Assembly: GCF_022045235.1 (NCBI RefSeq)
Contig: NW_027266319.1
Location: 55,986,001 to 56,050,000 of the forward strand
Reading direction: 5' to 3'
Origin: Haliotis cracherodii
Taxonomy: Eukaryota
Length of the DNA: 64,000 bases
The number at the start of each line of letters is the position of its first letter. Position 1 is the stretch's first letter. A program made the position numbers and the translations under genes. Below, piece after piece: positions 1 to 31,099 of the stretch. The notes beneath the pieces were generated by a model. It was not told the origin of the DNA, did not search any database, and saw only the letters and a list, made by a program, of their open reading frames with translations.

Positions 1-558
1 CGTTTCCATTTCAAATCGTCATCGTATGTAGCTCTTCGGCTGGATGACTAAGATTTACATCAAAACAAATAGCGAACACCATTCTGTCTCATTCTGTAGT
101 GCTTAATGACATGATCACATTTTCATTATGTTCGTTTTCTAGAATAGACTAGTCCATGTAATATTTTCATACATTCAAAAACAATGTTCGGGGTCCGTTT
201 TCGTTCAGCAATATTCCAGGTAATATAACAGTGGGACTTAAATAACTGGGTGTGGCACAGACAATCCAGTGACTTATATCATGAGCATCGGTCTACACAA
301 CTGCATGATTATAGAAAGCATCCTTTCGGTTACAATTTTTACACTGAAAGCAGAGTTGGCCTTTTAGGCATTTAATTTATTACTTTCATTTGAACCTGAT
401 GTAAAAGAGAGACGTTAATGTACTTGATACATCACCGATTTGGTCCTACTACAGCCGCTCATTGTTCTATAACTTAAAACGTAACTCCATTACAGTTTGG
501 GAAAATAGAAGATACTGTATGTCAGGCACTTAATGAAGTACTCTTTGGCTTCACTCAC

Positions 559-697
559 CCAACAACACCCTGGCTCCAATCTTTGCTATTGTGCCAACTG
601 TGCGCCATCTAACGAACCGTCGTCTCCGTCGTCCCCAAGCATCAGACTGAGGGATGGAGACTATGGCCACAAGCAGGAGGACAAGGAACAAACGCAT
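559..697 (-). CDS. Cationic peptide/EF-hand precursor, copy A1 (only coding exon 2 is in the window; exons 3-4 would lie left of position 1)
   Basis: Reverse complement reads ctgcag|aatacatcccaagATG (ATG at 697), then MRLFLVLLLVAIVSIPQSDAWGRRRRRFVRWRTVGTIAKIGARVLL+G|gtgagt. One synonymous change (GCT/GCC) versus A2. Positions 1-558 match intron 2 of the other copies. Confidence 0.85.
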
Positions 698-1201
698 CTT
701 GGGATGTATTCTGCAGTGAAAATAAATTCTTTTAGCGTGTGAGCGAGTTGGGTTTAACGCAGCTATTAACAGTTATATCACGGCGTGTCAGCTTAATATG
801 GGAGGGAAGGCCGCAGTGATGCAGGTTTTAGACGTTTACCACTTCGGCGAGACCCACGAGCACAGGTATGGTGCTTACAAACATAGAAACATAATCGGGG
901 TGAACCGGGATTCGAACCCACAATCTGGCAACTCAGCACAGCGAATTGCGGCGCCTTAGACGACTGAGCCCCCCGTGCCCCACTGAATTGTTTAAAGAAG
1001 CCGCATTCTCATGTGGGTGTGATTATTGTTGCTGATTGCCTTATGAAACGTTGATTGCTTAAGATGTAATGGATTTGACGACTGACTATCATTACAAACA
1101 ATTAAATCCTCAGTTAAATCCACATTTTGTAACCAATGCAAACTGAAATGATAAGTTACACGTAAACTAATCAGACAGATAGTGCATAAAGTATTACTCA
1201 C

Positions 1202-1258
1202 CAGAAGGACACGAGACAGGTCACAGTTGTTATGAATGTCGTGTCCCTGGTATTTATA
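1202..1258 (-). promoter_or_regulatory. TATA box and non-coding exon 1 of A1
   Basis: TATAAATA at 1258-1251; donor CTG|GTGAGT at 1202/1201. Confidence 0.7.
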
Positions 1259-3627
1259 CATTCTTTCCATTCATCAACCCGTGAAGTGAATCTGTTGCCA
1301 AAATATGGTAAGTGCCTGTTTGACAGAAACGTGCAAATGTAAATATGAAAAGAGATAAGTATCTACTTAGTCCACACCTCCTAATTGTCCTCTTTACAAG
1401 GGCTGTGTGTGAAGTGTATTTGTGTGTGATATCTATTTTTTTAAATTGTTTGAGAATATTTAAAAGAAACTTATCACACCTCCATGTCAGAATATTCAGA
1501 TCTAATTGGTTCATTTGATACTGATAAAACTCTACGTATCTCAAGTGGGAGGGAAATACATTTCTGAGTGGGAAAATATATCCCGTATACCCCGACATGA
1601 AAAAAACCAGGCTACACGTGTATTCATGAGCGAGGCCATATATATTGCACCCTGCTACGAAGCACAAAGCTGCACATTGTTTACGAGTCAAAGAACGACA
1701 CGAGAGACATCACAAGTTACCCTTAGCTCATTCGAGCAGTGGTTTTCTATCTGTTTTCAATTTGTTTTAATTTTTAATCGTTGTGGCAGTATCACACAGG
1801 GTATATGTGAATTGTGCGTCCCACGTTAGGTTTTAAACCACGAGCTGGATACTGCCACAACTTCTAATATTTGTGTACCAGAGGTGTATATGGCCATCTC
1901 TGAGAAAAATATATATTTTCCATTCAGCAAACACTGGAGGCCTTCAAAACAACTGATGCATGAAAATACCACTGGGTCACAGGTCAATTGAATTTATTGT
2001 ATAAGCGCACTTTACAGATATTGTCTCGGTGGGGCGTCCTCTGGCCACTTTGGTTCAGCTGCTGTCACATCTGTCAATCACTTTAACATACATCACAGGG
2101 GAAAGGTCAACAAGAAAGGTGACATCGATTTCGAGTAGTTCACATAAGTTTGATAAATACATGATCCCTATGTTTGAAGTAATTTGTTACTTATTGAATA
2201 TTGAGTCACGGTCAAAACATTGTTTTCTATTCCTCCTTGTAATGACAAACATGTATATACAATATCGCCATAGCTTGAAACTTAAAAAACACTTGGGACA
2301 GAGAATTCGAAATTCGTCGTAGTTCTTAAGTTCTTAAATGTGTACCCGAGTCTGTAAATGTGTACGTGAGGCTATTGTTGTGCATATAATACAGCACTGA
2401 AGTAACTGTAATGTCTTCCAATCTGCACATACACCATTTCGCAAACTATAATGTATATTTATCTATGCTGTAAAACAATATACACTCAAACCTCGCTGAA
2501 TCCTCCAGAGCGCAAAGAGAAATTCTGTTGTGGAACAAGAAATTCCGGGTTTTTTCCACGATCTACCCCAAGCATACCAAGAATATCAAATGGCCAGTCA
2601 ACAACATAATACATAAATAATACATAAACACACTTCATATACACCCCTCCCGAAGAGGACAATTAGAAAGTGTGAACTAAAGTAGATACTTATCTTAGCT
2701 AAGCTGTATGACTTGCGTCTTGTTATTCGTACAGTCAAGCTACAGAATGACACCCAATTGCTTACAACTGATATGTAAATTTGTAGATCCAAAATAAAAG
2801 AAACCCAAAAATTTGCATGTTTATAGAAAGCATCTTGTCGGGTACAAGTTTTAAACTGAAAGCAGAGTTGTATGTAAATTTGTAGATCCAAAATAAAATA
2901 AACCAAAATTTTGGTTAAAGTGGTTAACAGATGTGACAGCAGCTGAACCAAAGTGGCCAGAGGACGCCCCACCGAGACAATATCTGTAAAGGGCGCTTAT
3001 ACAATAAAGTCAATTGACCTGTGACCCAGTGGTAATTTCATGCATCAGTTGTTTTGAAGGCCTCCAGTGTTTGCTGAATGGAAAATATATATTTTTCTCA
3101 GAGATGGCCATATACACCTCTGGTACACAAATATAAGAAATTGTAGCAGTATCCAGCTCGTGGTTTAAAACCTAACGTGGGACGCACAAATTCACATATA
3201 CCCCTTGTGATACTGCCACAACGATTCGTAGCAGGGTGCAAGATATATGGCCTCGCTCATAAATACACGTGCAGCATGTTTTCTTCATGGCGGGGTATAC
3301 GGGATATATTGTCCCACTCAGAAATGTATTTCCCTCCCACTTGAGATACGTAGAATTTTATCAGTATCACATGAACCAATTAGATCTGAATATTCTGACA
3401 TGGAGGTGTGATAAGTTTCTTTTAAATATTCTCAAACAAAATTTTTAAAAATAAATATCACACACAAATACACTTCAAACAAACCCTCGTAAAGAGGACA
3501 ATTAGGAGGTGTGGACTAAGTAGATACTTATCTCTTTTCATATTTACATTTGCACGTTTCTGTCAAACAGGCACTTAACATATTTTGGCAACAGATTCAC
3601 TTCACGGGTTGATGAATGGAAAGAATG

Positions 3628-3684
3628 TATAAATACCAGGGACACGACATTCATAACAACTGTGACCTGTCTCGTGTCCTTCTG
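3628..3684 (+). promoter_or_regulatory. TATA box and non-coding exon 1 of A2
   Basis: TATAAATA at 3628-3635; consensus donor CTG|GTGAGT at 3684/3685; acceptor ttttcactgcag ends at 4190. Confidence 0.7.
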
Positions 3685-3904
3685 GTGAGTAATACTTTAT
3701 GCACTATCTGTCTGATTAGTTTACGTGTAACTTATCATTTCAGTTGGCATTGGTTACAAAATGTGGATTTAACTGAGGATTTAATTGTTTGTAATGATAG
3801 TCAGTCGTCAAATCCATTACATCTTAAGCAATCAACGTTTCATAAGGCAATCAGCAACAATAATCACACCCACATGAGAATGCGGCTTCTTTAAACAATT
3901 CAGT

Positions 3905-4165
3905 GGGGCACGGGGGGCTCAGTCGTCTAAGGCGCCGCAATTCGCTGTGCTGAGTTGCGTTCCTTGGGCACGCCAGATTGTGGGTTTGAATCCCGGTTCA
4001 CCCCGATTATGTTTCTACGTTTGTAAGCACCATACCCGTGCTCGTGGGTCTCGCCGAAGTGGTAAACGTCTAAAACCTGCATCACTGCGGCCTTCCCTCC
4101 CATATTAAGCTGACACGCCGTGATATAACTGTTAATAGCTGCGTTAAACCCAACTCGCTCACACG
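3905..4165 (+). mobile_element. tRNA-derived SINE (family 1) in intron 1 of A2; same insertion in A1, A3-A6; other copies about 10786-11048 (+), 12115-12270 (-), 37145-37360 (-), 52490-52940 (-)
   Basis: tRNA-like head with A-box-like ggctcagtcgtctaaggcgc and B-box-like gggtt(c/t)gaatccc, and a (CACT)n/(CTCA)n tail. A TSD-like taaaacaatt flanks it on both sides in A5. Absent from A7. Confidence 0.8.
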
Positions 4166-4203
4166 CTAAATCAATTTATTTTCACTGCAGAATACATCCC
4201 AAG

Positions 4204-5426
4204 ATGCGTTTGTTCCTTGTCCTCCTGCTTGTGGCCATAGTCTCCATCCCTCAGTCTGATGCCTGGGGACGACGGAGACGACGGTTCGTTAGATGGCGCA
4301 CAGTTGGCACAATAGCAAAGATTGGAGCCAGGGTGTTGTTGGGTGAGTGAAGCCAAAGAGTACTTCATTAAGTGCCTGACATACAGTATCTTCTATTTTC
4401 CCAAACTGTAATGGAGTTACGTTTTAAGTTATAGAACAATGAGCGGCTGTAGTAGGACCAAATCGGTGATGTGTCAAGTACATTAACGTCTCTCTTTTAC
4501 ATCAGGTTCAAATGAAAGTAATAAATTAAATTCCTTAAAGGCCAACTCTGCTTTCAGTGTAAAAATTGTAACCGAAAGGATGCTTTCTATAATCATGCAG
4601 TTGTGTAGACCGATGCTCATGATATAAGTCACTGGATTGTCTGTGCCACACCCAGTTATTTAAGTCCCACTGTTATATTACCTGGAATATTGCTGAACGA
4701 AAACGGACACCGAACATTGTTTTTGAATGTATGAAAATATTACATGGACTAGTCTATTCTAGAAAACGAACATAATGAAAATGTGATCATGTCATTAAGC
4801 ACTACAGAATGAGACAGAATGGTGTTCGCTATTTGTTTTGATGTAAATCTTAGTCAGCCAGCCGAAGAGCTACATACGATGACGATCTGAAATGGAAACG
4901 AGTATATGTTTTGGAATGTTACTGTAGATGCATATGAATATGTTCATTTGATATCAATACTCATAGCCTGATTAAAAGTGACCACTATCTCATATTCCTT
5001 AACCGAAAATGCATTCGTGTTCTTTCATTTTGTATCTTTCCAAACATGACTATTTTCTTTCAAGGCAAACGTAATGTGGATAACCTTGATACAAACATGG
5101 ACGGCACAATTGACCTGTCCGAAGCTGAGGCGCTAATGGACAGACGATCGGCCATGGAGCTCCTTTCGTTCTCAGATGAAAATGGTAAGAGCTTTTGCCT
5201 TCAACTTCATTGATACAAATGAAATGTTTATTACTTTTAAAATAATGTAATTATTTGTCAAATGTTTGTATTTGTTTACTCTCATGGGTAATGTGGACCC
5301 TTTTCCCGAATAAATCTGACTCCTGAACATTTATTCTGACTGACTGCAACAACCTTTCTCCATTTAGGAGACTCAAGCGTGAGTTTGGAAGAGTTCGCAA
5401 GGAGCATCAACAACTTGGAGCAGTGA
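4204..5426 (+). CDS. Secreted cationic (candidate antimicrobial) peptide precursor with acidic two-EF-hand propeptide, copy A2, 105 aa
   Basis: Coding exons 4204-4342, 5065-5184 and 5368-5426. All junctions are GT-AG, both coding introns are phase 1, and the frame is open to TGA. Hydrophobic 20-aa signal ending SDA, Arg-rich 26-mer, GKR site, EF-hand loops DTNMDGTIDLSE and DENGDSSVSLEE. TATA box, non-coding exon 1 and AATAAA are present. Confidence 0.9.
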
Positions 5427-5674
5427 GTCAAATGTAAGGTGGAGCAAATCTTACTGCAATGATCCGTTTTATACAGTAGAAACCGTCATCCGTTCAACAT
5501 AACTGTATCTGAAAATGTATGCTTCAGCAATAATTTCATGTCAAATATGCCAAGATCATATGATTTGATGTATTTCTTTTGTAGATCACTCTATTGAAGA
5601 GACACTGGCATCGCACTTTGAAGGCGATTTCGAGGATGTATTCCTGAATAGTGTTCCCACAAGTCAATAGTTTC

Positions 5675-5680
5675 AATAAA
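5675..5680 (+). terminator. Polyadenylation signal of A2 (equivalents at 9117, 13986-13991 minus, 20561, 22183-22188 minus, 29995)
   Basis: AATAAA about 250 nt after the stop, followed by a GT-rich tract (ctttgttgtgtctt); conserved in A2-A7. Confidence 0.65.
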
Positions 5681-6077
5681 TAATTATAACAATCACCTTT
5701 GTTGTGTCTTGCTCATTAAAGACGTCTTTACAGGTGTCATTTCAGACAACAGGTGATCCAATATGTAATGCTTGTATCTGATTTCTAATGTGTTCACTAC
5801 CACCATCTCGTTCAACATAATATTGATCTGCAATCGTACAACAACATAATCAGCAAAATGTATATTATATCAAGTATATCTGATATACAATATTTGTTTT
5901 GTTTGCTGTTTGTTTAATCGTACAACATTACCAGCAAAGGTAGTTCCTCAAAAGGAGATATGACATGAACATATGTATGTTCACATTGTTCTACACTGAC
6001 ATCTTTTGCAGTTTTAAAACAAATATATTCAAATAATATCATCATGAGATGAGAAAGGTATATGATGTTTAATTGTT

Positions 6078-6325: not shown

Positions 6326-6422
6326 GTTATGTTAAGCGAGTGAGTGAGATAGTTCAATGTTAACGTCACATCGACAATACACTATTTCAGTCATATCATG
6401 ACGACATATAGTTATACATTCC

Positions 6423-7069: not shown

Positions 7070-7126
7070 TATAAATACCAGGGACACGACATTCATAACA
7101 ACTGTGACCTGTCTCGTGTCCTTCTG
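7070..7126 (+). promoter_or_regulatory. TATA box and non-coding exon 1 of A3
   Basis: Same motifs as A2. Confidence 0.7.
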
Positions 7127-7645
7127 GTGAGTAATACTTTATGCACTATCTGTCTGATTAGTTTACGTGTAACTTATCATTTCAGTTGGCATTGGTTACA
7201 AAATGTGGATTTAACTGAGGATTTAATTGTTTGTAATGATAGTCAGTCGTCAAATCCATTACATCTTAAGCAATCAACGTTTCATAAGGCAATCAGCAAC
7301 AATAATCACACCCACATGAGAATGCGGCTTCTTTAAACAATTCAGTGGGGCACGGGGGGCTCAGTCGTCTAAGGCGCCGCAATTCGCTGTGCTGAGTTGC
7401 GTTCCTTGGGCACGCCAGATTGTGGGTTTGAATCCCGGTTCACCCCGATTATGTTTCTACGTTTGTAAGCACCATACCCGTGCTCGTGGGTCTCGCCGAA
7501 GTGGTAAACGTCTAAAACCTGCATCACTGCGGCCTTCCCTCCCATATTAAGCTGACACGCCGTGATATAACTGTTAATAGCTGCGTTAAACCCAACTCGC
7601 TCACACGCTAAATCAATTTATTTTCACTGCAGAATACATCCCAAG

Positions 7646-8868
7646 ATGCGTTTGTTCCTTGTCCTCCTGCTTGTGGCCATAGTCTCCATCCCTCAGTCTG
7701 ATGCCTGGGGACGACGGAGACGACGGTTCGTTAGATGGCGCACAGTTGGCACAATAGCAAAGATTGGAGCCAGGGTGTTGTTGGGTGAGTGAAGCCAAAG
7801 AGTACTTCATTAAGTGCCTGACATACAGTATCTTCTATTTTCCCAAACTGTAATGGAGTTACGTTTTAAGTTATAGAACAATGAGCGGCTGTAGTAGGAC
7901 CAAATCGGTGATGTGTCAAGTACATTAACGTCTCTCTTTTACATCAGGTTCAAATGAAAGTAATAAATTAAATTCCTTAAAGGCCAACTCTGCTTTCAGT
8001 GTAAAAATTGTAACCGAAAGGATGCTTTCTATAATCATGCAGTTGTGTAGACCGATGCTCATGATATAAGTCACTGGATTGTCTGTGCCACACCCAGTTA
8101 TTTAAGTCCCACTGTTATATTACCTGGAATATTGCTGAACGAAAACGGACACCGAACATTGTTTTTGAATGTATGAAAATATTACATGGACTAGTCTATT
8201 CTAGAAAACGAACATAATGAAAATGTGATCATGTCATTAAGCACTACAGAATGAGACAGAATGGTGTTCGCTATTTGTTTTGATGTAAATCTTAGTCAGC
8301 CAGCCGAAGAGCTACATACGATGACGATCTGAAATGGAAACGAGTATATGTTTTGGAATGTTACTGTAGATGCATATGAATATGTTCATTTGATATCAAT
8401 ACTCATAGCCTGATTAAAAGTGACCACTATCTCATATTCCTTAACCGAAAATGCATTCGTGTTCTTTCATTTTGTATCTTTCCAAACATGACTATTTTCT
8501 TTCAAGGCAAACGTAATGTGGATAACCTTGATACAAACATGGACGGCACAATTGACCTGTCCGAAGCTGAGGCGCTAATGGACAGACGATCGGCCATGGA
8601 GCTCCTTTCGTTCTCAGATGAAAATGGTAAGAGCTTTTGCCTTCAACTTCATTGATACAAATGAAATGTTTATTACTTTTAAAATAATGTAATTATTTGT
8701 CAAATGTTTGTATTTGTTTACTCTCATGGGTAATGTGGACCCTTTTCCCGAATAAATCTGACTCCTGAACATTTATTCTGACTGACTGCAACAACCTTTC
8801 TCCATTTAGGAGACTCAAGCGTGAGTTTGGAAGAGTTCGCAAGGAGCATCAACAACTTGGAGCAGTGA
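7646..8868 (+). CDS. Cationic peptide/EF-hand precursor, copy A3 (same as A2)
   Basis: Coding exons 7646-7784, 8507-8626 and 8810-8868, offset 3442 bp from A2. No differences seen in the exons. Confidence 0.88.
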
Positions 8869-9864
8869 GTCAAATGTAAGGTGGAGCAAATCTTACTGCA
8901 ATGATCCGTTTTATACAGTAGAAACCGTCATCCGTTCAACATAACTGTATCTGAAAATGTATGCTTCAGCAATAATTTCATGTCAAATATGCCAAGATCA
9001 TATGATTTGATGTATTTCTTTTGTAGATCACTCTATTGAAGAGACACTGGCATCGCACTTTGAAGGCGATTTCGAGGATGTATTCCTGAATAGTGTTCCC
9101 ACAAGTCAATAGTTTCAATAAATAATTATAACAATCACCTTTGTTGTGTCTTGCTCATTAAAGACGTCTTTACAGGTGTCATTTCAGACAACAGGTGATC
9201 CAATATGTAATGCTTGTATCTGATTTCTAATGTGTTCACTACCACCATCTCGTTCAACATAATATTGATCTGCAATCGTACAACAACATAATCAGCAAAA
9301 TGTATATTATATCAAGTATATCTGATATACAATATTTGTTTTGTTTGCTGTTTGTTTAATCGTACAACATTACCAGCAAAGGTAGTTCCTCAAAAGGAGA
9401 TATGACATGAACATATGTATGTTCACATTGTTCTACACTGACATCTTTTGCAGTTTTAAAACAAATATATTCAAATAATATCATCATGAGATGAGAAAGG
9501 TATATGATGTTTAATTGTTTGTTTGTTGTTGAACGCCGCACTCAGCAATATTCCAGCTATATGACGGCGGTCTGTAAATAATCGAGTATGGACCAGACAA
9601 TCCAGTGATTAATATCATGAAAATAATTCCACGCAATTGGTATTCGATGACATGCATCAACCAAGTCAGCGAGCCTAACCACCCGATCCTGTTAGTCGCT
9701 TCTTACGACAAGCATGGTCGCCTTATGGTTTGCTGAAGACCTATTCTATCCCGGATCTTCACGGCTCGTTATGTTAAGCGAGTGAGTGAGATAGTTCAAT
9801 GTTAACGTCACATCGACAATACACTATTTCAGTCATATCATGACGACATATAGTTATACATTCC

Positions 9865-9923: not shown

Positions 9924-11049
9924 AGTGATGGACAGTATCATAACTAGATTATCACAGTTTCAAATTAAATCAAGTTGAGAGCATGTAAAAGACAACAACA
10001 ACACAATATAAAAAACGGACAAGGAACCGTAGGGACGATACTTCTGCCACCTGCACGGTTCCCCAGCAGAATTGACACTATCCCTTCAGCTGCTGGCAAG
10101 TGTAGTCAGTTTAATCCACCAGTTAAAACTAACAAATAAACTACGCTTATAAATGTGATAGTTTAAATTTACTTTGAAAGATGTGGAACGTATGTACCGT
10201 GTCAAGGGGACACTGATATCAGATTCTTTATTCTCCATAGACCACCGACGGTGGTACAAGAGCATACATAAAGTACAGAGATAAATATAATATGTACATC
10301 AAGACGGCTGTGTGCATTTAGAGTTAGCATTCAAGGTGTTAAATACAAATAATACATATACATTATGCATGTGGAACGTATGTACCCTCTCAGGGGGACA
10401 CTGATATCACTGTACTTGGATTCAACCACAAACAATCTCAGTTGCGAATTTGAAAACATGTTTTTAAAAAAAATATTAACAAAAATATTTCAAATAATTC
10501 TATATCCTTTAAAAGCCAATATTTAAACGAGAATTAATTCTACGAAAAAGTTCTTTAATAGATGATGATTTGAAACATTGATCTTTCATCACAAGGGATG
10601 CAGAATGGAGGGTCCTCACCTTTCAATAAATGTTCATGACTTTAGCGTCAATGGCCAATACGACATCATCGGGTTTTGACCTTTCCAAATCTGGACTGAC
10701 TAACCAAAATCGGTGTAACCGATGGTTGGTGTAATTTCATGTAGCGTATTTACACCTACTCGGGTGTCCCTCTTCTTTTGCATGAGGGGGCACGGGGGGC
10801 CCAGTCGTCTAAGGCGCCGCTATTCACTTGAACACACCAGAAACCTATGATTGTGGGTTCGAATCCCAGTTCGCCCCGATTATGTTTCTAGGTTTGTCAG
10901 CACCATACCCGTGCTCGTGGGTTTCACCGAAGTGGTAAACGTTTGAAACCTGCATCACTTCGGACTTTCCTCCCACATTAAGCTGACAGGCCGTGATATA
11001 ACTGGAATATTGTTAAAAGCGGCGTTAAACCCAACTCACTCACTCACTC

Positions 11050-11530
11050 CTTTGCATGATATCTTTGAAGTAACATCTAAATACAAGTTTATAATCACTG
11101 TATGGACTTAGAAGTGGTGTCACAGATTTGTTGAGTGTTTTTGCAGCCGTATCGGCCATTGAAACATGGCTGGGTAACCACCAAAAGGCGATGTCATATT
11201 GGCCAGTAGCTATTAAAACACGCCAGATCATTTAAACACGCAAAAATATCGACCAAGAGTGGATGTTTACATGACATATTTTGTAATAGCCAGAAGGCAC
11301 GAAGGAGAATGGGAAAAGGTATCAGCTGTTTATGTTCAGATTGGGTCTTGATATATTTTAGGGCTGTTAAAATGACATTTGCTTCTACTGTGAATAAAGA
11401 ACTGTTATATGGTAATCTTGAAGATAGTGTTCTGGATCCAATGATAGTGACATTAGCAACTGTGCCACCATCCTTGGATCCATCTGTAAGAAGAAAACAG
11501 CGTTATCTCTATCCCCCGCCATTATAATTA
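11050..11530 (-). mobile_element. Decayed non-LTR retrotransposon RNase H fragment (I/Nimb-like) in the A3/A4 palindrome spacer
   Basis: Minus-strand translation includes LTDGSKDGGTVANVTIIGSRTLSSRLPYNSSLFTVEANVILTALKYI and WWLPSHV...ADTAAK. Confidence 0.75.
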
Positions 11531-15974: not shown

Positions 15975-16031
15975 CAGAAGGACACGAGACAGGTCACAGT
16001 TGTTATGAATGTCGTGTCCCTGGTATTTATA
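15975..16031 (-). promoter_or_regulatory. TATA box and non-coding exon 1 of A4
   Basis: Same motifs as A2 on the minus strand. Confidence 0.7.
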
Positions 16032-18521: not shown

Positions 18522-18578
18522 TATAAATACCAGGGACACGACATTCATAACAACTGTGACCTGTCTCGTGTCCTTCTG
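18522..18578 (+). promoter_or_regulatory. TATA box and non-coding exon 1 of A5
   Basis: Same motifs as A2. Confidence 0.7.
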
Positions 18579-20312: not shown

Positions 20313-21290
20313 GTCAAATGTAAGGTGGAGCAAATCTTACTGCAATGATCCGTTTTATACAGTAGAAACCGTCATCCGTTCAACACAACTGTATCTGAAA
20401 ATGTATGCTTCAGCAATAATTTCATGTCAAATATGCCAAGATCATATGATTTGATGTATTTCTTTTGTAGATCACTCTATTGAAGAGACACTGGCATCGC
20501 ACTTTGAAGGCAATTTCGAGGATGTATTCCTGAATAGTGTTCCCACAAGTCAATAGTTTCAATAAATAATTATAACAATCACCTTTGTTGTGTCTTGCTC
20601 ATTAAAGACGTCTTTACAGGTGTCATTTCAGACAACAGGTGATCCAATATGTAATGCTTGTATCTGTTTTCTAATGTGTTCACTGCCACCATCTCGTTCA
20701 ACATAATATTGATTTTCAATCGTACAACAACATAATCAGCAAAATGTATATTATGTCAAGTATATCTGATATACAATATTTGTTTTGTTTGTTGTTTGTT
20801 TAATCGTGCAACAATACCAGCAAAGGTAGTTCCTCAAAAGGAGATATGACATGAGCATATGTATGTTCACATTGTTCTACACTGACATCTTTTGCAGTTA
20901 TAAAAAAAATATATTCAAATAATATCATCATGAGATGAGAATGGTATATGATGTTTAATTGTTTGTTTGTTGTTGAACGGTGCACTCAGCAATATTCCAG
21001 CTATATGACGGCGGTCTGTAAATAATCGAGTATGGACCAGACAATCCAGTGATTGATATCATGAAAATAATTCCACCCAATTGGTATTCGATGACATGCA
21101 TCAACCAAGTCAGCGAGCCTAACCACCCGATCCCGTTTGAATACGACAAGCATGGTCGCCTTATGGTTTGCTGAAAACCTATTCTATCCCGGATCTTCAC
21201 GGCTCGTTATGTTAAGCGAGTGAGTGAGATAGTTCAATGTTAACGTCACATCGACAATACACTATTTCAGTCATATCAGTTATACATTCC

Positions 21291-21379
<89 letters not shown>

Positions 21380-22436
21380 AGTGATGCACAGTATCATAAC
21401 TAGATTATCACAGTTTCAAATTAAATCAAGTTGAGAGCATGTAAAAGACAACAACAACAACACAATATAAAAAACGGACAAGGAACCGTAGGGACGATAC
21501 TTCTGCCACCTGCACGGTTCCCCAGCAGAATTGACACTATCCCTTCAGCTGCTGGCAAGTGTAGTCAGTTTAATCCACCAGTTAAAACTAACAAATATAC
21601 TACGCTTAAAAATGTGACAGTTTAAATTTACTTTGAAAGATGTGGAACGTATGTACCCCGTCAGCCGTCTTGATGTACATATCATATTTATCTCTGTACT
21701 TTATGTATGCTCTTGTACCACCGTCGGTGGTCTATGGAGAATAAAGAATCTGATATCAGTGTCACCCTGACAGGGTACATACGTCCCACATCTTTCAAAG
21801 TAAATTTAAACTATCACATTTATAAGCGTAGTTTATTTGTTAAACGGTTAACTGCAAAAGATGTCAGTGTAGAACAATGTGAACATACATATGCTCATGT
21901 CATAACTCCTTTTGAGGAACTACCTTTGCTGGTATTGTTGTACGATTAAACAAACAACAAACAAAACAAATATTGTATATCAGATATACTTGATATAATA
22001 TACATTTTGCTGATTATGTTGTTGTACGATTGCAGATCAATATTATGTTGAACGAGATGGTGGCAGTGAACACATTGGAAAACAGATACAAGCATTACGT
22101 ATTGGATCACCTGTTGTCTGAAATGACACCTGTAAAGACGTCTTTAATGAGCAAGACACAACAAAGGTGATTGTTATAATTATTTATTGAAACTATTGAC
22201 TTGTGGGAACACTATTCAGGAATACATCCTCGAAATTGCCTTCAAAGTGCGATGCCAGTGTCTCTTCAATAGAGTGATCTACAAAAGAAATACATCAAAT
22301 CATATGATCTTGGCATATTTGACATGAAATTATTGCTGAAGCATACATTTTCAGATACAGTTATGTTGAACGGATGACGGTTTCTACTGTATAAAACGGA
22401 TCATTGCAGTAAGATTTGCTCCACCTTACATTTGAC

Positions 22437-23659
22437 TCACTGCTCCAAGTTGTTGATGCTCCTTGCGAACTCTTCCAAACTCACGCTTGAGTCTCCTAAA
22501 TGGAGAAAGGTTGTTGCAGTCAGTCAGAATAAATGTTCAGGAGTCAGATTTATTCGGGAAAAGGGTCCACATTACCCATGAGAGTAAAACAATACAAACA
22601 TTTGACAAATAATTACATTATTTTAAAAGTAATAAACATTTCATTTGTATCAATGAAGTTGAAGGCAAAAGCTCTTACCATTTTCATCTGAGAACGAAAG
22701 GAGCTCCATGGCCGATCGTCTGTCCATTAGCGTCTCAGCTTCGGACAGGTCAATTGTGCCGTCCATGTTTGTATCAAGGTTATCCACATTACGTTTGCCT
22801 TGAAAGAAAATAGTCATGTTTGGAAAGATACAAAATGAAAGAACACGAATGCATTTTCGGTTAAGGAATATGAGATAGTGGTCACTTTTAATCAGGCTAT
22901 GAGTATTGATATCAAATGAACATATTCATATACATCTACAGTAACATTCCAAAACATATACTCGTTTCCATTTCAAATCGTCATCGTATATAGCTCTTCG
23001 GCTGGCTGACTAAGATTTACATCAAAACAAATAGCGAACACCATTCTGTCTCATCCTGTAGTGCTTAATGACATGATCACATTTTCATTATGTTCGTTTT
23101 CTAGAATAGACTAGTCCATGTAATATTTTCATACATTCAAAAACAATGTTCGGTGTCCGTTTTCGTTCAGCAATATTCCAGGTAATATAACAGTGGGACT
23201 TAAATAACTGGGTGTGGCACAGACAATCCAGTGACTTATATCATGAGCATCGGTCTACACAACTGCATAATTATAGAAAGCATCCTTTCGGTTACAATTT
23301 TTACACTGAAAGCAGAGTTGGCCTTTTAGTCATTTAATTTATTACTTTCATTTGAACCTGATGTAAAAGAGAGACGTTAATGTACTTGATACATCACCGA
23401 TTTGGTCCTACTACAGCTGCTCATTGTTCTATAACTTAAACCGTAACTCCATTACAGTTTGGGAAAATAGAAGATACTGTATGTGAGGCACTTAATGAAG
23501 TACTCTTTGGCTTCACTCACCCAACAACACCCTGGCTCCAATCTTTGCTATTGTGCCAACTGTGCGCCATCTAACGAACCGTCGTCTCCGTCGTCCCCAG
23601 GCATCAGACTGAGGGATGGAGACTATGGCCACAAGCAGGAGGACAAGGAACAAACGCAT
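22437..23659 (-). CDS. Cationic peptide/EF-hand precursor, copy A6
   Basis: Minus-strand coding exons 23659-23521, 22798-22679 and 22495-22437. Carries the EAETLM variant; splice sites intact. Confidence 0.9.
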
Positions 23660-24177
23660 CTTGGGATGTATTCTGCAGTGAAAATAAATTGTTTTAGCGT
23701 GTGAGCGAGTTGGGTTTAACGCAGCTATTAACAGTTATATCACGGCGTGTCAGCTCAATATGGGAGGGAAGGCCGCAGTGATGCAGGTTTTAGACGTTTA
23801 CCACTTCGGCGAGACCCACGAGCACGGGTATGGTGCTTACAAACGTAGAAACATAATCGGGGTGAACCGGGATTCAAACCCACAATCTGGCGTGCCCAAG
23901 GAACGCAACTCAGCACAGCGAATTGCGGCGCCTTAGACGACTGAGCCCCCCGTGCCCCACTGAATTGTTTTAAGAAGCCGTATTCTCATGTGGTGTGATT
24001 ATTGTTGCTGATTGCCTCATGAAACGTTGATTGCTTAAGATGTAATGGGTTTGACGACTGACTATCATTACAAACAATTAAATCCTCAGTTAAATCCACA
24101 TTTTGTAACCAATGAAAACTGAAATGATAAGTTACACGTAAACTAATCAGACAGATAGTGCATAAAGTATTACTCAC

Positions 24178-24234
24178 CAGAAGGACACGAGACAGGTCAC
24201 AGTTGTTATGAATGTCGTGTCCCTGGTATTTATA
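24178..24234 (-). promoter_or_regulatory. TATA box and non-coding exon 1 of A6
   Basis: TATATAAATA variant plus GTGAGT donor on the minus strand. Confidence 0.7.
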
Positions 24235-25229
24235 TATTCTTTCCATTCATCAACCCGTGAAGTGAATCTGTTGCCAAAATATGTTAAGTGCCTGTTTGAC
24301 AGAAACGTGCAAATGTAAATATGAAAAGAGATAAGTATCTACTTAGTCCACACCTCCTTATTGTTGGGTTGGGTATGAAGTGTGTTTGTGTGTGATATTG
24401 ATTGAATGGCCATTTGATATTCTTGGGGTGATGGGGGTAATCAGTGAAAAAGGATTTGAAGAAATTACAGTTACGGAAGTGATGCATTATATGCACAACA
24501 ATAGCCTCGGGTACATATTTGAAAGACTAACTTACGAGCTGCGACGAATTACGGATTCTGTGTCCCCAGCGTACCTGTTTTGTAGGTTTCAAGCCATGGC
24601 GATATGGTATACATATGTTTGTGAATACAAGTAGGAATAGAAAAATACTTCGATCGTGATTCATAGGTTCTCAGAGAATGAACTCTACAATATTCAATGA
24701 GAAAGAAATTAGTTTAAACAAAGAGATCATGCATTTTTCACACTTAAGTAAACTACCCCAATTTGATATCACCTTTCTTGTTGACCTTTCCTGTGTGATA
24801 TATGTTAAAGTGATTGACAGATGTGACAGCAGCTGAACCAAAGTGGCCACAGGACGCCCCACCGAGACAATATCTGTAAAGTGCGCTTATACATTAAATT
24901 CAATTGACCCGTGACCCAGTGGTATTTTCATAATGCGTCAGTTGTTTTGATGGCTTCCAGTGTTTGCTGAATGGAAAATATATTTTTCTCAGAGATGGCC
25001 ATATGCACCACTGGTTCACAAATATTAGAAGTTGTAGCAATATACGGCACCTGATATTAAACCTTACGTGGAACGTATAAAATCACATATACCACGTGTG
25101 ATAATGTCACAACGATTATATCTTACTTCCCCGTTTCAATCGGCCATTGTAAAAGAATTGAAAACAGATAGAAAACAGCTGTTCGAATGAGCTGAGGTAT
25201 ACATTGATAACATACAACACAATATGAAA

Positions 25230-25610
25230 ACGGACAGGAGATTACCAAACAATTGGCCCAAAACATGCAGCCTGTTTCCTTCATAGCGGGGTATACAGGA
25301 TTTACATAAGTGTTCCTACAAGTAAATGGTTTCAATATATCGTTATAACAATCACCTTTGTCATGCCTTGCACATTAGATGTCTTAACAGCAGGTGATCC
25401 GATATGTCATGCTTGTAACAGATTTGCAATGTTTCATTGCCACAATCTCCTTCAAGATATGGATCTGCAATCGTACAAAAACATTATCAGCAAAAGTAGT
25501 TCCTCAAAGAGTTTTTCCATAAGGGTATGGATGTTTGCATTGTTTCACATTGAGATCTTTTGTAGTTTGTTTTCGAACATATCTAAAAAATATCATCATT
25601 AGATGAGACG
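25230..25610 (+). pseudogene. Scar of a deleted A copy: upstream promoter sequence fused directly to the 3' UTR end
   Basis: gcagcctgtttccttcatagcggggtatacagga (homologous to 3271-3305) joins gtgttcctacaagtaaatggtttcaatatatcgttataacaatcacctttg (homologous to 5651-5701, with AATAAA mutated). An inverted copy of the same junction lies at about 27520-27605. Confidence 0.7.
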
Positions 25611-26199
25611 AGACCCCTGTGAAGATCCAGGGTAGAATAGGTCTTCTCAACCCATGCTTCCCGTACAAGGCGGTTATGCTTGTCGTAAGAGGCGACTAAC
25701 GAGATCGGGTGGTCAGACTCGCTGACTTGGTTGATGCATGTCATCAATCCCAAATGCGTGGATCGATGCTCATGATATAAATCACTGGATTGTCTGGTCC
25801 AGACTCGATTATTTACAGACCGCCGTCAACAAACCAACAACAACGACAACAACTCAACATGATACATTAAAATCATCAACAATTAATGACCCATCAAGAG
25901 AGCCATTTACAACCTTAGGTCATCTATTTATTTAACGTTACCTATTATATGCTTACCTTGCGGGACACCCTGATTGTAATCGTAAATATCAGACAAGGTG
26001 GAACCCATATGTTCCTGGAAAGGCCCCATCTCATTCAGATCTTTTAAAATTCCATATTTCCAGATGGTATCATAAGCTTTCTCTCAGTCGGAAAGTTTTG
26101 ATATAGTGTGTTGTTTATTTATTATGCCATTTTTAACAAACGTTTCCAATCGCACCAAATGGTCAATGCTGCTTCTATTTTTCCTACACTTCTTCATCA

Positions 26200-27490
26200 T
26201 CAAAATATGGCCCTGTGATTTAAATAACGATGAAGATTACAATGAAGTATTTTCATTACATGAGTAAATACCGCCCTGGAGCAAGCTCGTGATATAGCAG
26301 CGGGATGATAATATCCACTATCAGTTTTTGAAGCATTTACCTGAATCATGTAATGAAATACGTTTACACATATTTGACCTACTATGGCCGTCAGTGAGTT
26401 TTCCTCCTTCGTGGCATAATGCCATTGTCGTCCCCATAGCAAAACCTGGCCGGGATCATATAGATCCCTCAAATTACCGCCCTATATGTTTAACCAGTTG
26501 CGTTTGAAAAACCTCGGAACGAATGGAAATAATATAGATAAGTTTGGCATCTGGAAACCAAGAATCTTATTATTGATATTCAATGTGGTAGAAGTAGAAG
26601 TACTATTGAACATTAAGTTCGATTACAATCCTTTGTTAAAAATGCTATAGTCATTAAACAACGGTATCAATCTTCTTTGATCTTGAGAAAGCATACGGTA
26701 CTATCGTGAAGCATGGAATTTTAAAGGATTTACATGCTTTCGGCTGGGGGGTTTACCTCATTTTATATCACTGTTTGTAACAGACAGTTAAATTCAAGTT
26801 TGAAAGGACTAAACCCTGTCTGATTATTATTTTGTCTGTCACATTATTTGGTATTATTCAGTAGATGGATCACTTTTCGTGGATAATTTTAATATTGTTT
26901 GTTGTTACAAATCTGTAGTGGTCCCATGAAAATGGGTTTAAATTTCCTAAATCAAAAATTAATTGTATACACTGCAGAAAATATAAGACACATAAGAAAC
27001 GCGAATTATGTTTGAATATGGACGAACATTAACCAGTAATTTAAACAACATATAGATACTATTTCGTCTCAGGCCTTGCCTTGGAGAATTTCGAACCTTT
27101 ACTTTACATAGTCTGTCGTGGATACGGAGTAGCCATCCTTTAAAGAACACAGCCTGAAATTATCACCATCACCAAATTACATTTTAATCACTCAAATCCA
27201 GCTTGTGTATTTAATCCTGTTTACGAAGATATTTACAATACAAAATCATCTCTTATTCCATCACTTGAAATAAGAATCATATCTGCCATTTCTGCTATTC
27301 ATAATATACTTCAAGATATAGCCCCCGTCCAACCCCTCCTTGGCAAATGGTAAGGCCAAATGTAGACCTGACATTAACTAAACTGAAGAAATCAGACACA
27401 AACCCGCTAATTAATAAACAAGATTACAACCAATTAAAAAACACAAATGAAGTGGGCCAGGGGATATAGGAATGGAGTTCGTCCGTCCGT
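26200..27490 (+). mobile_element. Decayed LINE reverse-transcriptase fragment (duplicate of 31100-32570 with internal deletions)
   Basis: DPSNYRPICLTSCV motif; many stops and frameshifts; colinear with the 31-32.5 kb copy. Confidence 0.75.
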
Positions 27491-28296
27491 TTCTCAATGG
27501 GGACAACTTTTCTAAAAATGTGCAAGGCATGACAAAGGTATTGTTATAACAATATATTGAAACAATTTACTTGTAGAAACACTAATGGAAATCCTGTATA
27601 CACGTATAAGCGCACTTTACAGATATTGTCTCGGCGGGGCGTCCTGTGGCCACTCTGGTTAAGCTGCTGTCACATCTGTCAATCACTTTAACATATATCT
27701 CAGGGGAAAGGTCAACAAGAAAGGCGACATCAAACTACAGTAGTTTACATAAGTTTGATAAATACATGATCCATCTCTTTGAACTAATTTCTTGCTCATT
27801 GAATATTGTAGAGTTCATTCTCTGAGAACCTATGAATCACGATCGAAGCATTTTTCTATTCCTACTTGTACTCACAAACATGTATGTACCATCAATTTCA
27901 CACAAACATGTATGTACCATATCGCCATGGCTTATATAACGGGTACACTAGGGACACAGAATTCGTAAATAGTCGTAGCTCGGAAGTTAGTCTTTCAAAT
28001 ATGTACCTGAGGCTGTTGTTGTGCATATAATGCACCACTTTCGTAACTGTAATTTCTTCAAATCCTTTTTCACTTATTACCCCCATCACCCCAAGAATAT
28101 CAAATGGCCATTCAATCAACATCACACACAAACACCACAGTTCATGCCAAACCCTCCCGAAGATGACAATTAGGAAGTGTGGACTAAAGTAGATACTTAT
28201 CTCTTGTCATATTTACATTATCACGTTTCTGTCAAACAAGCACTTAATATATTTTGGCAACAGATTTACTTCACAGGTTGTTCAACGGAAAGAATG

Positions 28297-28353
28297 TATA
28301 AATACCAGGGTCAGTACATTCATGATAACACTGACCTGACTCGTGTCCTTCTG
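28297..28353 (+). promoter_or_regulatory. TATA box and non-coding exon 1 of A7
   Basis: TATAAATA and CTG|GTGAGT are conserved despite divergence of the surrounding DNA. Confidence 0.7.
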
Positions 28354-28539
28354 GTGAGTAATACTTTATGCACTATCTGTCTGATTAGTTTACGTGTAAC
28401 TTATCATATTATTTTTTTCGGAGCAGACTGTCTTAAAGTTGCCATTGTTACATAATTTACCCGAGACAATTGTTTGTAATGATAATCATGGGTGTAATTT
28501 GGGGAAATTCTTTCTTTTCACTACAGAATACATCCCAAG

Positions 28540-29745
28540 ATGCGTTTGTTCCTTGTCCTCCTGCTTGTGGCCATAGTCTCCATCCCTCAGTCTGATGCCT
28601 GGGGACGACGGAGACGACGGTTCGTTAGATGGCGCACAGTTGGCACAATAGCAAAGATCGGAGCCAGGGTGTTGTTGGGTGAGTGAAGCCAAAGAGTACT
28701 TCATTAAGTGCCTCACATACAGTATCTTCTATTTTCTAAAAACTGTAGATTTAGTTAAGGTTTAGGTTTATAGGAGAATCAGCGGCTTTAGTAGGCTGTA
28801 GTGAGACATAGTGGGTGATGTATAAAGTGCATTAATCTCACTCCTTTACATCATGTTCAAATGAAGGTAATAAATGAAAAGACAAATCTGCATTCAGTGA
28901 AAGAAATATAACCGACAAGATGCGTTCTATAATCATGCCACTGCTTAGACCAATGATGTAAGTCAATGGATTGTCTGGTTCACACTCCATTATTTAAAGA
29001 CTGCTGTTATATTACCTGGAATATTGCTGATAGAAAACAACCACAGACACAATAAAATATTGTTTTACAATACATGAATGTTTCGTTTGAAAAGTCTATT
29101 CTAGTACACAAACATAATGAAAATGTGCACATGTCATTAAGCAATACAGACTGTTTATAAGTGTATCTTAGACACTCTCCAGAAGAGCTACATGCGGTGA
29201 GATCAAAAGGAAAAGAGTAATGGAATAGCTTTGTGTTCAGTGTATTTAAATACTCATATTCATCGCCTGATTAACATGACTACTAACACATCCTCCATAA
29301 CCGAAACTCCATTCATGTTCTTTCATGTTGTATCTTTCCAAACATGACTATTTTCTTTTAAGGCAAACGTAATGTGGATAACCTTGATACAAACAAGGAT
29401 GGGACAATTGACTTGTCAGAAGCTGAGACGCTAATGGACAGACGATCGGCCATGGAGCTCCTTTCGTTCTTAGATGAAAATGGTTAGAGCTTTTGTATTC
29501 AATTTCATTGATACAAATGATTTGAATTTCTTCATTTGTCAAGAAGTCTTGATAGCATAGAAGATGAATACTTGTGTGTTTGTATTTACATTGACCATCA
29601 TTGGGAAATTGGACCCGTTTTAAAGTATATCCGATAGACTCATGAATATTTATTCTGACTGACTGCAACAACCTTTCTCCACTTAGGAGACTCAAGCGTG
29701 AGTTTGGAAGAGTTCGCAAGGAGCATCAACAACTTGGACCAGTGA
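28540..29745 (+). CDS. Cationic peptide/EF-hand precursor, diverged copy A7
   Basis: Coding exons 28540-28678, 29363-29482 and 29687-29745. Signal and mature peptide identical to A2; propeptide NVDNLDTNKDGTIDLSEAETLMDRRSAMELLSFLDENGDSSVSLEEFARSINNLDQ. The exon 3 donor is a weaker GTTAGA. Introns are clearly diverged and intron 1 lacks the SINE. Confidence 0.85.
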
Positions 29746-31099
29746 GGCAAATGTAAGGTAGAGCAAATCCTTCTGCAATGATTCCGTTTTGTAAAGTAGA
29801 AACCGCCATCCGTTCAACATGTCTGTATGTGAAAACGTATGTTTAAGCAACGATTTCATGTCAAATATGCCAAGATCATATGATTTGATGTACTTCTTTT
29901 GTAGAGCACTCCATCGAATAGGCACTGGCATCGCACTTGGAAGACGTTCTCAATGATATTTTCCTGAATAGTGTTCCTACTGAAAGATGGTTTCAATAAA
30001 TCACTATAGCAATCACCTTTGTTGTGCCTTGTTAATTACATGTCTTAATAGCAGTCATTTTAGACAGCAGGTGATGCAATATGTAATGCTTGTAACTGAT
30101 TTCCAATGTGTTCAATGCAACCATCTCCTTCAAGATATGGATCTGCAATCGTATAACAACATAATCAGCAAAATGTATATCAAGACTTAGTACAACTGAC
30201 ATACAATAGGTTTGCTTTGAAGATGAACAATGGGTATCTTTTCTGCATCATAATACGCAGTGCATATAATTCACATTAACATATCTCGGGACAATCCACT
30301 CATGGCAATCTCTCTTTAAAAATGACAAACGCTTTCCAGGATCATGACAAATCTATTCTGAAAGCAGAGTTCATTGTGCGATTCCCATTATAACATAAGC
30401 ATATGTTTATGTATCACTGTCAAATAGTGATGATACCGTGTGTGTGCAATTTAGGAATGCATTTAAAAGAAACAAACAAATTCCTGTTTTCATGGCAACA
30501 AGTTTGACTTTGACCCTGTTCAACAACATCGAGAACAACCTCGACATGATACATTAACATCATCAACAAATAGGGACCCATCAACAGAGCTATTTAAAAC
30601 CTTAGGTCAACTATTTATTTAACGTTACCGATAATATGCTACCTCGAGGGACACCCTGATTGTAATCGTAAATATCAGACATGGTGGAACCCATATGTTC
30701 CTGGAAAGGCCCCATCTCATTCAGATCTTTTAAAATTCCATATTTCCAGATGGTATCATAAGCTTTTTCTCAGTCGGAAAGTTTTGGTATAGTGTGTTGT
30801 TTATTTATTATGCCATTTTTAACAAACGTTTCCAATCGCACCAAATGGTCAATGCCGCTTCTATTTTTCCTAAACTGCCTCTGGGTTCCTGGAAATGCCT
30901 ATCTGTTAAAAAATGTGACACAGTGGGGTAAAGGACCTATCAGCCCCATCTCATTCAGATATTTTAAAATTCCATATTTCCAGATGGTATCATAAGCTTT
31001 AGGCTATGGTGTGTTGTATATTTATTAATCAATTTTTAACAAACGTTTCCAATCGCACCAAATGGTCAATGCTACTTCTATTTTTTCTAAACTTCTTCA

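Follow-up and report, generated by a model that had tools for sequence, protein, structure and literature searches.

An abalone array of 22 mostly inverted gene copies, likely evolving in concert, for a predicted cationic and likely antimicrobial peptide

The gene copies and the array

The window is the whole stretch of 64,000 nucleotides of Haliotis cracherodii DNA that was analysed. It contains seven copies of one gene in the orientation - + + - + - +, as in the original prediction, and exon 2 was located in each: 559-710(-), 4191-4342(+), 7633-7784(+), 15317-15468(-), 19084-19235(+), 23521-23672(-) and 28527-28678(+). An eighth copy, absent from the first reading, enters at the right edge. 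The gene features are as follows.

559..1246, minus strand, copy A1 (g14 of 22), exon 1 at 1246-1202 and exon 2 at 710-559
3640..5690, plus strand, copy A2, five exons
3640-3684, plus strand, A2 exon 1, UTR, putative start placed by a TATA-like motif
4191-4342, plus strand, A2 exon 2, ATG at 4204, signal and peptide
5065-5184, 5368-5433 and 5585-5690, plus strand, A2 exon 3, exon 4 (stop) and exon 5 (3' UTR)
7082..9132, plus strand, copy A3, direct tandem of A2
13976..16019, minus strand, copy A4
18534..20576, plus strand, copy A5
22173..24222, minus strand, copy A6
28309..30008, plus strand, copy A7, old type
32756..33383, plus strand, orphan last exon and flank, old type
63334..64000, minus strand, eighth copy (g21), 3' end only

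Exons 3-5 of A1 are intact and lie immediately left of the window. Every intron of A2-A7 is GT..AG, which bears out the predicted intact splice sites. All seven window copies also encode the same 20-aa signal and 26-aa mature peptide, as predicted, with one synonymous change each in this coding stretch in A1 and A7. The product of A2 is P0003.

These seven copies belong to an array of 22 copies across 158 kb (G000:C56); a search of G000 with exon 2 gave 32 matches, 22 of them near-identical. The array reads -+-+-+-+--+-+-++-+-+-+. Of its 21 neighbour pairs 19 alternate, more than random orientation would give (P=1e-4, coin-flip model). The reading frame is open in 21 of the 22 copies, and 13 keep the exact peptide and its amidation glycine. 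The remainder carry K39R (four copies), V29L (two), a one-residue deletion (one), loss of the amidation glycine (one) or a premature stop (one). The invariant mature peptide that had been proposed thus holds for the window but not for the whole array. The young copies are about 2.2% apart, and at this age the invariance in the window is expected (P=0.21 for five distinct young copies), as is that across the 20 young copies (P=0.12); no significant signal of purifying selection was found among them. Youth is thus enough to account for the shared peptide of the young copies, and that of A7 is attributed to a conversion tract, described below.

The original prediction had named a read depth of only one or two copies as a result that would count against it; reads from other samples fit many copies. 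Raw reads of X18 cover 18 non-repeat bins of A2 at a mean of 1.5x (about 21 reads) and 7 of 30 bins of A7. Repeats on 400 kb place the host depth at about 0.1x, and A2 therefore corresponds to roughly 15 copies, a rough calibration taken from the best-sampled bin; in other bins the implied depth of the host genome ranged over 0.01-0.5x, and in those sampled poorly it went as high as 3x. A single copy was considered from the 1.5x depth of X18 and rejected on this calibration and on the A7-type introns, which are nearly without reads. The ratio of young to old contig depth is about 7 in X5, 10-25 in X2 and 10 in the assembly, although contig depth is not copy number; these ratios give at most a hint of the predicted variation in copy number among individuals. 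None of the reads examined bridges the A2/A3 junction; a joint from 6830 to 3400 was discarded as support for it, being merely the repeat unit continuing.

In the sister-species RNA run X14 the exons reach depths of 13,500-39,000, and most intron bins have 0-76. For intron 3 a GT..AG joint was recovered, and loose ends match the joins of exons 2-3 and 4-5, and introns 2-4 are thus spliced in this RNA. Run X19 covers no exon bins and has no bearing on expression.

Palindromes and the origin of the alternation

The main repeat features of the window are listed here.

2088..2913, no strand, spacer of the head-to-head pair A1/A2, with inner arms at 1776-2087 and 2914-3226
9943..13099, no strand, A3/A4 tail-to-tail centre, arms 9943-10778 and 12272-13099
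14759..18005, plus strand, direct repeat of window 1-3227, 4.2 kb long when sequence beyond the left edge is included
16860..17691, no strand, A4/A5 head-to-head spacer
20901..21848, no strand, A5/A6 tail-to-tail spacer, imperfect inverted repeat at 21589-21842
21850..34802, plus strand, 13-kb block with A6 and A7, whose second copy (g21, g22) runs from 63617 and is about 98% identical

The predicted recurrence of the block 1-3227 at 14759 was recovered (14759-18005, 97.9% identity), and the A1/A2 and A4/A5 spacers are 98% identical. The prediction of young palindromes stands for A1/A2, A3/A4, A4/A5 and A5/A6, which are inverted repeats; A6/A7, by contrast, is an old pair of 80-86% identity with a 2.7-kb spacer. 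The arms of A4/A5 (13268-16859 and 17692-21278) are 98.1% identical and the two copies are mutual nearest relatives, while those of A5/A6 (18344-20900 and 21849-24403) are 97.7% identical. The inner spacers measure 826 nt in A1/A2, 832 in A4/A5 and 948 in A5/A6; that of A3/A4 depends on the arms used, 1078 nt for the inner arms derived from repeats and 1493 for the 836-nt arms. A2 and A3 form a direct tandem of units 3184-6648 and 6626-10086, which are 99.8% identical with short microhomology at the junction. The first 3241 nt of the two copies are identical, and their differences are confined to a microsatellite, to a homopolymer and to the end at the junction.

Several palindromes of the array share their spacers (590/579/590 nt three times, 826/832 twice, 693/713 twice) among the inverted pairs compared, which were 16 of 19, since two had no arm of at least 90% and the comparison for g20/g21 had picked up an unrelated satellite. 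Junction 25-mers also recur across several palindromes, and entire - + pairs lie within direct duplications that are 8-13 kb long and about 98% identical. The nearest relative is in the same orientation for 16 of the 22 copies, and all four starred forks among the young copies are orientation-pure in a copy tree in which 10 of 18 inner branches are unresolved. Inverted neighbours differ by 0.020 and next-but-one copies of the same orientation by 0.017; mean divergence among young copies is nearly equal within (0.0216) and between (0.0224) orientations. The shared spacers and same-orientation relatives point to a few inversions that were recopied by direct duplication. We infer from the sequences that a small number of old inverted pairs, duplicated again and again in direct orientation, gave the alternation; the nearly equal mean divergences, the inverted nearest relatives A4/A5 and the many unresolved branches count against this history.

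The original prediction had attributed the palindromes to fold-back or breakage-fusion-bridge amplification. The recurring spacers, the 8-13 kb direct duplications and the 16 same-orientation nearest relatives speak against this mechanism. No nested symmetry of the breakage-fusion-bridge kind was found in the array, nor the unique junctions and generally inverted closest relatives that such a process would leave.

Gene conversion and change between species

28524..28736, plus strand, conversion tract of A7, 213 nt long, over exon 2 plus 58 nt of intron 2

Within this tract A7 differs from A6 by one mismatch in 213 nt, against a background of 24%, and in intron 2 the two copies differ at 147 of 602 sites. 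The chance of such a match is P=2e-6 for the 58 intron nucleotides alone and P=3e-4 for the synonymous sites alone, and the intron flank within the tract is not conserved in a paralogous cluster. The match of A7 exon 2 to the young copies thus points to gene conversion, as judged from sequence. V29L is confined to the neighbours g21 (young) and g22 (old), and K39R occurs in the pairs g03/g04 and g07/g08, across the orientation clades. Among doubletons in opposite orientations, 7 of 15 join neighbours (P=0.01) in a count that left out A3, which is identical to A2, and g20/g22, which are of the old type. A second cluster of five copies has exon differences of 0/175 and 0/120, while its plus and minus copies differ at 44-50 of 551 sites of intron 2, the same pattern as in the main array. 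Two marks of concerted evolution were found: conversion tracts, and copies that are uniform within a species and different between species.

The H. rufescens proteins P0016 and P0019 differ from the array precursor at 6 and 5 of the 26 peptide positions, respectively, and at none of 79 positions elsewhere (Fisher P=1e-4 and 7e-4), and this species has at least eight gene models with its own peptide. The sister-species peptide differs in codons 36-44 only. In DNA of organism B six non-synonymous changes fall in these codons, and no synonymous change occurs among the matches listed; two of the nine organism-B differences lie outside these matches, probably at two acceptor-side sites. Compared with the neutral rate the peptide change is borderline (6/56 sites against 4.8%, P=0.05). 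Its own peptide on the old copy of organism B is supported by one contig and by depth sums, where contigs drop rare variants.

The old-type intron of organism B differs from that of A7 at 31 of about 650 nt, and A7 therefore predates the species split, an orthologous old type being present in organism B. The old/young pair is older than the split, whereas the expansion to 20 copies may be younger, the young copies being 2.2% apart and the species 4.8%.

The predicted precursor and its interpretation

The precursor of 105 aa comprises a 20-aa signal (cleavage placed by eye from the alignment), a 26-residue peptide of charge +9, a G-KR site and an acidic 56-aa propiece (net -11) with two EF-hand-like loops. 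The gene has five exons and KR is encoded on exon 3. P0003 is without cysteine, and NCBI names it an uncharacterized Haliotis cracherodii protein. Signal, cysteine-free cationic peptide, Gly-dibasic site and anionic propiece, the layout expected in a myticalin-like precursor of a linear cationic amidated antimicrobial peptide, are all present. In an alignment of 42 relatives, R49, D55 and E66 never vary and G47 is kept in at least 90%; these positions flank a variable Arg/Trp-rich segment. The relatives (P0003-P0066 and others, with automatic names only and no assigned function) are from H. cracherodii, rufescens, rubra and asinina and from Gigantopelta aegis, with weaker family matches in Saccostrea and a sea anemone. 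At least 35 genes of the family lie on a single contig, where the other clusters encode other peptides.

Pfam EF-hand models match the precursor with E=6e-5 to 9e-4, below the curated cut-offs, which relatives pass. A sequence search of the PDB gave 32 EF-hand proteins (best E=0.02), and the best ESM Atlas score, 0.80, is a lead only. The AlphaFold model is weak (pLDDT 58, pTM 0.30), too weak to judge packing of the peptide on the EF pair. Exon 2 alone matched LEAP-2 in Pfam, in the signal region only (E=0.07), and this identity was rejected. A search of openly accessible article texts, exact motifs included, listed no publication on the peptide family or the array.

We favour, with somewhat more confidence than doubt, a 22-copy array homogenised by gene conversion that encodes a predicted short, amidated, strongly cationic and likely antimicrobial peptide. 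The copies likely serve dosage and evolve in concert, and the peptide turns over from species to species. A few inversions would have given head-to-head pairs, which unequal exchange may have recopied into alternating orientation, and conversion across the pair arms would keep exon 2 uniform; the animal would therefore produce almost a single peptide in large amounts. New variants could then spread through the array, probably under microbial selection. By known precursor logic, a convertase is predicted to cleave at KR, G47 to provide the amide and the acidic propiece to mask the charge of the peptide. Dosage rather than diversity, as originally proposed, holds within the array; between species and clusters it does not, the H. 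rufescens peptide being different and clusters of the same contig encoding other peptides. Dosage is the likely gain from the young high-copy amplification.

An account that differs from this reading only in timing and selection strength is unlikely, though a serious competitor: amplification of one gene per lineage after speciation, with only the old neighbour converted, no sweep of the array and weak or absent selection. The young copies are closer to one another than the species are, and each lineage may therefore have amplified one gene after the peptide had changed. Their invariance is not significant, a pseudogene and a copy that lacks the amidation glycine have survived, and young:old depth is about 2-3 in organism B against at least 7 in organism A, with the same caution on contig depth. 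However, conversion followed the latest block duplications (V29L in g21/g22, K39R across clades), the between-species changes fall close together within nine codons, with no synonymous one among the matches listed, and H. rufescens has its own peptide in several models. It is quite improbable that serial fold-back or breakage-fusion-bridge events made each palindrome while purifying selection froze the peptide. Alternation of neighbours, spacers of mostly 0.3-1.7 kb, the mutual A4/A5 relationship and the A2/A3 microhomology are in its favour, and template switching may have made the first inversions; yet junctions recur, the large duplications are direct, clades are orientation-pure, inverted neighbours are no closer than next-but-one copies, and the supposedly frozen peptide changes fastest between species. 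False duplication of most copies in assembly is highly implausible: A2/A3 identity would fit it, but the other copies are 0.8-3% apart with private indels, other samples fit many copies and H. rufescens has a multi-copy set of its own, leaving at most A3 doubtful.

Two alternatives concern the product. G-KR amidation sites are typical of neuropeptides, and abalone VERL shows concerted evolution with species-specific change. A signalling or reproductive role (an amidated neuropeptide or gamete factor) instead of defence draws on both parallels and on a snail neuropeptide precursor with an EF-hand, seen as an entry in a reference list. It is very unlikely, because one long +9 Arg/Trp peptide per precursor, whose length and sequence vary across dozens of paralogues, is unlike receptor ligands. 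With the same array history, the product could also be an EFCBP-like secreted calcium-binding protein for shell formation or repair, dosage feeding biomineralisation. Pinctada fucata EFCBP (P0079, ABF48089.1), the closest named relative, is a published shell-repair calcium-binding protein (Huang et al. 2007, as cited in PMC7810044) that is reported to respond rapidly to shell damage (PMC7810044), and it matches the family profile over nearly its full length (positions 3-119, E=1.2e-8) with the same layout. We consider this role improbable: between species the cationic segment changes and the EF-hand part does not, G-KR is conserved family-wide, direct BLASTP is weak (22%, E=0.064), and a response to shell damage would also fit wound defence.

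A wider form of the favoured reading is more doubtful than probable. It supposes that cysteine-free antimicrobial peptides carrying an EF-hand propiece form one family throughout the gastropods, EFCBP included. In abalone, arrays of inverted pairs would act as conversion engines in which a newly selected peptide sweeps every copy, even one 24% diverged, so that each species makes large amounts of a peptide of its own. In its passages on abalone, a 2025 review names only molluscidin, macins, LGBP-derived peptides and haliotisin. With at least 35 genes on a single contig and high transcription in one sister-species run, the present family could be an important part of abalone defence that has been missed, and EFCBP would merit reconsideration. 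Having two species-specific peptides to compare, the array also offers a small, well-defined case for asking whether conversion between inverted copies accelerates adaptation, as predicted. H. cracherodii is reported to have suffered a disease-driven collapse, and copy number and peptide alleles of the array are therefore candidates of interest.

Several known systems are similar in part. EFCBP shares with the abalone precursor the signal, the Arg/Trp-rich segment, G-KR and two EF-hands, but it is published as a shell-repair protein, pairwise identity is only 22%, and the passages on it mention no array. Mussel mytimycin precursors (PMC8004829) are antimicrobial, and their dibasic site is likewise followed by an EF-hand propiece, anionic and conserved but of obscure role; their mature peptide has 10-14 cysteines, the abalone peptide none. 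The myticalins and modiocalins of mussels also combine a signal, a cationic peptide of linear form, a dibasic site for amidation at Gly and an anionic extension and, in gene structure, share a non-coding exon 1, the peptide on exon 2, a phase-1 intron 2 and a multigene family (PMC5577615). In the same source they have three exons, the dibasic site inside exon 2, an unstructured anionic extension, no EF-hand, and hypervariable paralogues with presence-absence variation, unlike the uniform abalone copies. Five exons, KR on exon 3 and the EF-hand-like propiece set the abalone array apart from this class by description, and no myticalin was among 20 representative relatives looked up by name.

The human alpha-defensin locus DEFA1A3 is a tandem copy-number-variable locus. 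It likewise consists of near-identical antimicrobial copies (3-16) subject to gene conversion and intra-allelic rearrangement (PMC4117965, in part), whereas the abalone array has 22 mostly inverted copies and an old copy, 24% diverged, that appears to be converted exon-wise. In Y-chromosome palindromes, conversion between inverted copies homogenises them and, in the Mano-Innan model, is predicted to spread beneficial changes faster (PMC3403216, in part); the abalone arms are 1-4 kb at 95-98% identity and lie in a mollusc gene cluster.

Layout and reality of the array

The seven gene copies of the window (A1-A7) have the orientation - + + - + - + at the places originally predicted, as self-comparison and exon mapping confirm, and all seven carry GT..AG splice sites. 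The block at 1-3227 recurs at 14759-18005 with 97.9% identity by self-comparison, as also predicted, and the same two approaches place an eighth copy entering the window at 63334. Queried with exon 2, the genome gives 32 matches; 22 lie in a 158-kb stretch that surrounds the window, at 96-100% identity. We mapped 22 five-exon genes (g01-g22) over 204 kb of contig C56, on which the window occupies 55986001-56050000, in the order -+-+-+-+--+-+-++-+-+-+, where orientation alternates in 19 of 21 neighbour pairs (P=1e-4). Most copies are of a young type; A7 (g20) and g22 belong to a diverged old type, and the A6+A7 block is duplicated as g21+g22.

Copies differ from one another by 0.8-3% with private indels, except for A2 and A3, which are identical over 3241 nt; the array is real, with only the A2/A3 junction still putative. 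Raw reads of run X18 cover 18 non-repeat A2 bins at a mean of 1.5x and touch 7 of 30 A7 bins. Host depth in X18 is about 0.1x from the best-sampled repeat bin (400 kb of the genome tiled), which gives about 15 young copies, an order-of-magnitude figure as other repeat bins range from 0.01x to >1x. Young:old contig depths are ~210:29 in X5, 66-120:5-8 in X2 and 53-68:25-28 in X8 (organism B, the sister species); being contig depths, not copy numbers, they hint at variation.

Two very high-copy interspersed repeats, which we take to be SINE-like, lie at 3905-4162 and 6073-6322 and at the homologous places of each young copy, having multiplied along with the gene. The intron-1 repeat insertion is not present in the old-type A7 and g22. 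The A1/A2 spacer (1721-2700) is similar to the sequence upstream of A6/A7 (73-78% across 1721-2423) and by eye also looks like a cut-off promoter; it is probably the relic of a deleted copy. A 206-nt satellite occurs at 44289-48078, 50133-50667 and 58109-59882, with arrays in opposite orientation flanking ~8 kb. Minisatellites have units of 21 nt (34592-35013, partly palindromic) and 31 nt (37364-37644).

The precursor and its family

The spliced product is a protein of 105 aa, identical to the uncharacterized H. cracherodii protein P0003 of NCBI. It comprises a 20-aa signal, a 26-aa Arg-rich peptide (net +9), G-KR and a propiece of 56 aa (net -11) that carries a pair of EF-hand-like loops. 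In run X14 of organism B, classed as RNA by an automated guess, exon letters agree with H. rufescens proteins. Depth is 13,500-39,000 in exons versus 0-76 in most intron bins; exon 3-4 depth may take in paralogous clusters, and contig depth measures expression poorly. One joint crosses intron 3, and loose ends fit exon 2-3 and exon 4-5 joins. In run X13 (organism D) a single contig of depth 8.5, matching 29363-29752, has the end of exon 4 followed by the beginning of exon 3, an arrangement expected of circular RNA or exon scrambling.

Four Haliotis species and Gigantopelta aegis have relatives, and weaker matches come from an oyster and a sea anemone; Pinctada EFCBP is among the relatives, names having been looked up for 20 of 218 representative matches. 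In an alignment of 42 proteins, conservation falls on the G-x-R site and the EF-loop residues, and the cationic segment is variable. An exon 3 query finds 37 places in the genome, including several clusters, each encoding its own different peptide. Members on the window's contig (C56) and another (C23) are:

C56 53.86-53.90 Mb (53850001-53910000, L015-L020): 5 tandem copies, head-to-tail
C56 0.82-0.84 Mb (806001-856000, L021-L025): 5 copies, - + - - +
C56 2.35-2.37 Mb (2.345-2.370 Mb): 3 copies
C56 0.72 Mb and C23 41.1 Mb: further family members

The peptide of the 53.86-53.90 Mb cluster is different and shorter, and its propiece shows 90% identity over exon 3; the 0.82-Mb cluster encodes a 39-aa peptide. 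Two among the members at 2.345-2.370 Mb, 0.72 Mb and C23 41.1 Mb match the database proteins P0022-P0024. An acidic tail of 35-40 residues is present in most paralogues (P0005-P0008 compared) and absent from P0003; the last exon is untranslated in the array gene, and the matching exon of other clusters codes for this tail. The sea-anemone proteins P0103 and P0202-P0204 have a nearly identical Arg-rich start, then added cysteines, then an EF-hand pair; this likeness may be homology or convergence.

Alternation, conversion and peptide turnover

The original prediction explained the alternating palindromes by serial fold-back or breakage-fusion-bridge amplification. These are not needed, given recurring spacers, direct pair duplications and orientation-pure forks. 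Spacers of 590/579/590, 826/832 and 693/713 nt recur among palindromes, the 826/832-nt spacers being those of A1/A2 and A4/A5, with their boundary found again at g05/g06. Direct duplications of 12.7, 9.6+3.4 and 8 kb, ~98% identical, carry whole - + pairs. In 16 of 22 genes the nearest relative is oriented alike, and within the young copies all four starred forks of the gene-copy tree are orientation-pure. Against recopying of pairs, mean divergence is nearly equal by orientation, A4 and A5 are inverted nearest relatives, and half of the tree lacks resolution. A few inversions, perhaps via template switching, may have come first, with unequal exchange then recopying pairs; this is the economical reading of the alternation.

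An identical signal and 26-residue peptide had been predicted for all seven copies of the window, which holds; array-wide it is exact in only 13 of 22. Young copies are expected to be uniform at their age (P=0.21 with the 5 distinct copies in the window, P=0.12 with 20 copies). Gene conversion among copies is well supported by the following. A7 differs from A6 at 147 of 602 intron 2 sites, and at 28524-28736 it has 1 mismatch in 213 nt, a tract that takes in 38 synonymous sites along with 58 bases of the intron, the latter not conserved in the paralogous cluster. V29L is confined to the neighbours g21 (young) and g22 (old) and absent from their block duplicates A6 and A7; K39R unites the pairs g03/g04 and g07/g08 across both orientation clades. 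Seven of 15 opposite-orientation doubletons join neighbours (P=0.01), some sites being linked. In the 0.82-Mb cluster exons 2 and 3 have no DNA differences, and intron 2 differs by 8-9% between orientations.

The H. rufescens precursors P0016 and P0019, each with at least 4 accessions, equal P0018 at 79/79 signal, site and propiece positions and differ from it at 6/26 and 5/26 peptide positions respectively. Organism B DNA has six non-synonymous changes in codons 36-44, and two further differences probably sit at the acceptor. Measured against the neutral rate, the excess of peptide change is of borderline significance (P=0.05). Organism B has an A7-type copy, 31 letters different over ~650 nt, and the old/young split is therefore older than the species. 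Its exon 2 appears in one contig only (depth 112, versus 95 for exon 4 young and old together), which suggests, short of showing, that conversion also reached its old copy. Amplification may postdate peptide change in each lineage, because young copies are closer than species. Of the predicted dosage amplification with an invariant peptide, the dosage array is real, but the peptide changes between species.

Comparison with known systems

On balance we favour a dosage array evolving in concert; on this reading its product is probably the precursor of an antimicrobial, from an unnamed family with turnover of the peptide between species. A parallel can be drawn to VERL.

Our literature search found no paper on this peptide family, which is unnamed in the available portions of PMC8398477, PMC7653742, PMC11767717, PMC13176007, PMC13229213 and PMC9936805, whose supplementary gene lists could bear on it. 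EFCBP is treated in the accessible parts of PMC7810044 and PMC3517415. As far as the available text describes them, myticalins (PMC5577615) parallel the array gene in precursor layout and mytimycins (PMC8004829) in their EF-hand propiece; the array gene lacks defining features of both families. In genomic behaviour the array parallels DEFA1A3 (PMC4117965) and palindrome conversion theory (PMC3403216), as set out in the accessible sections of these papers.
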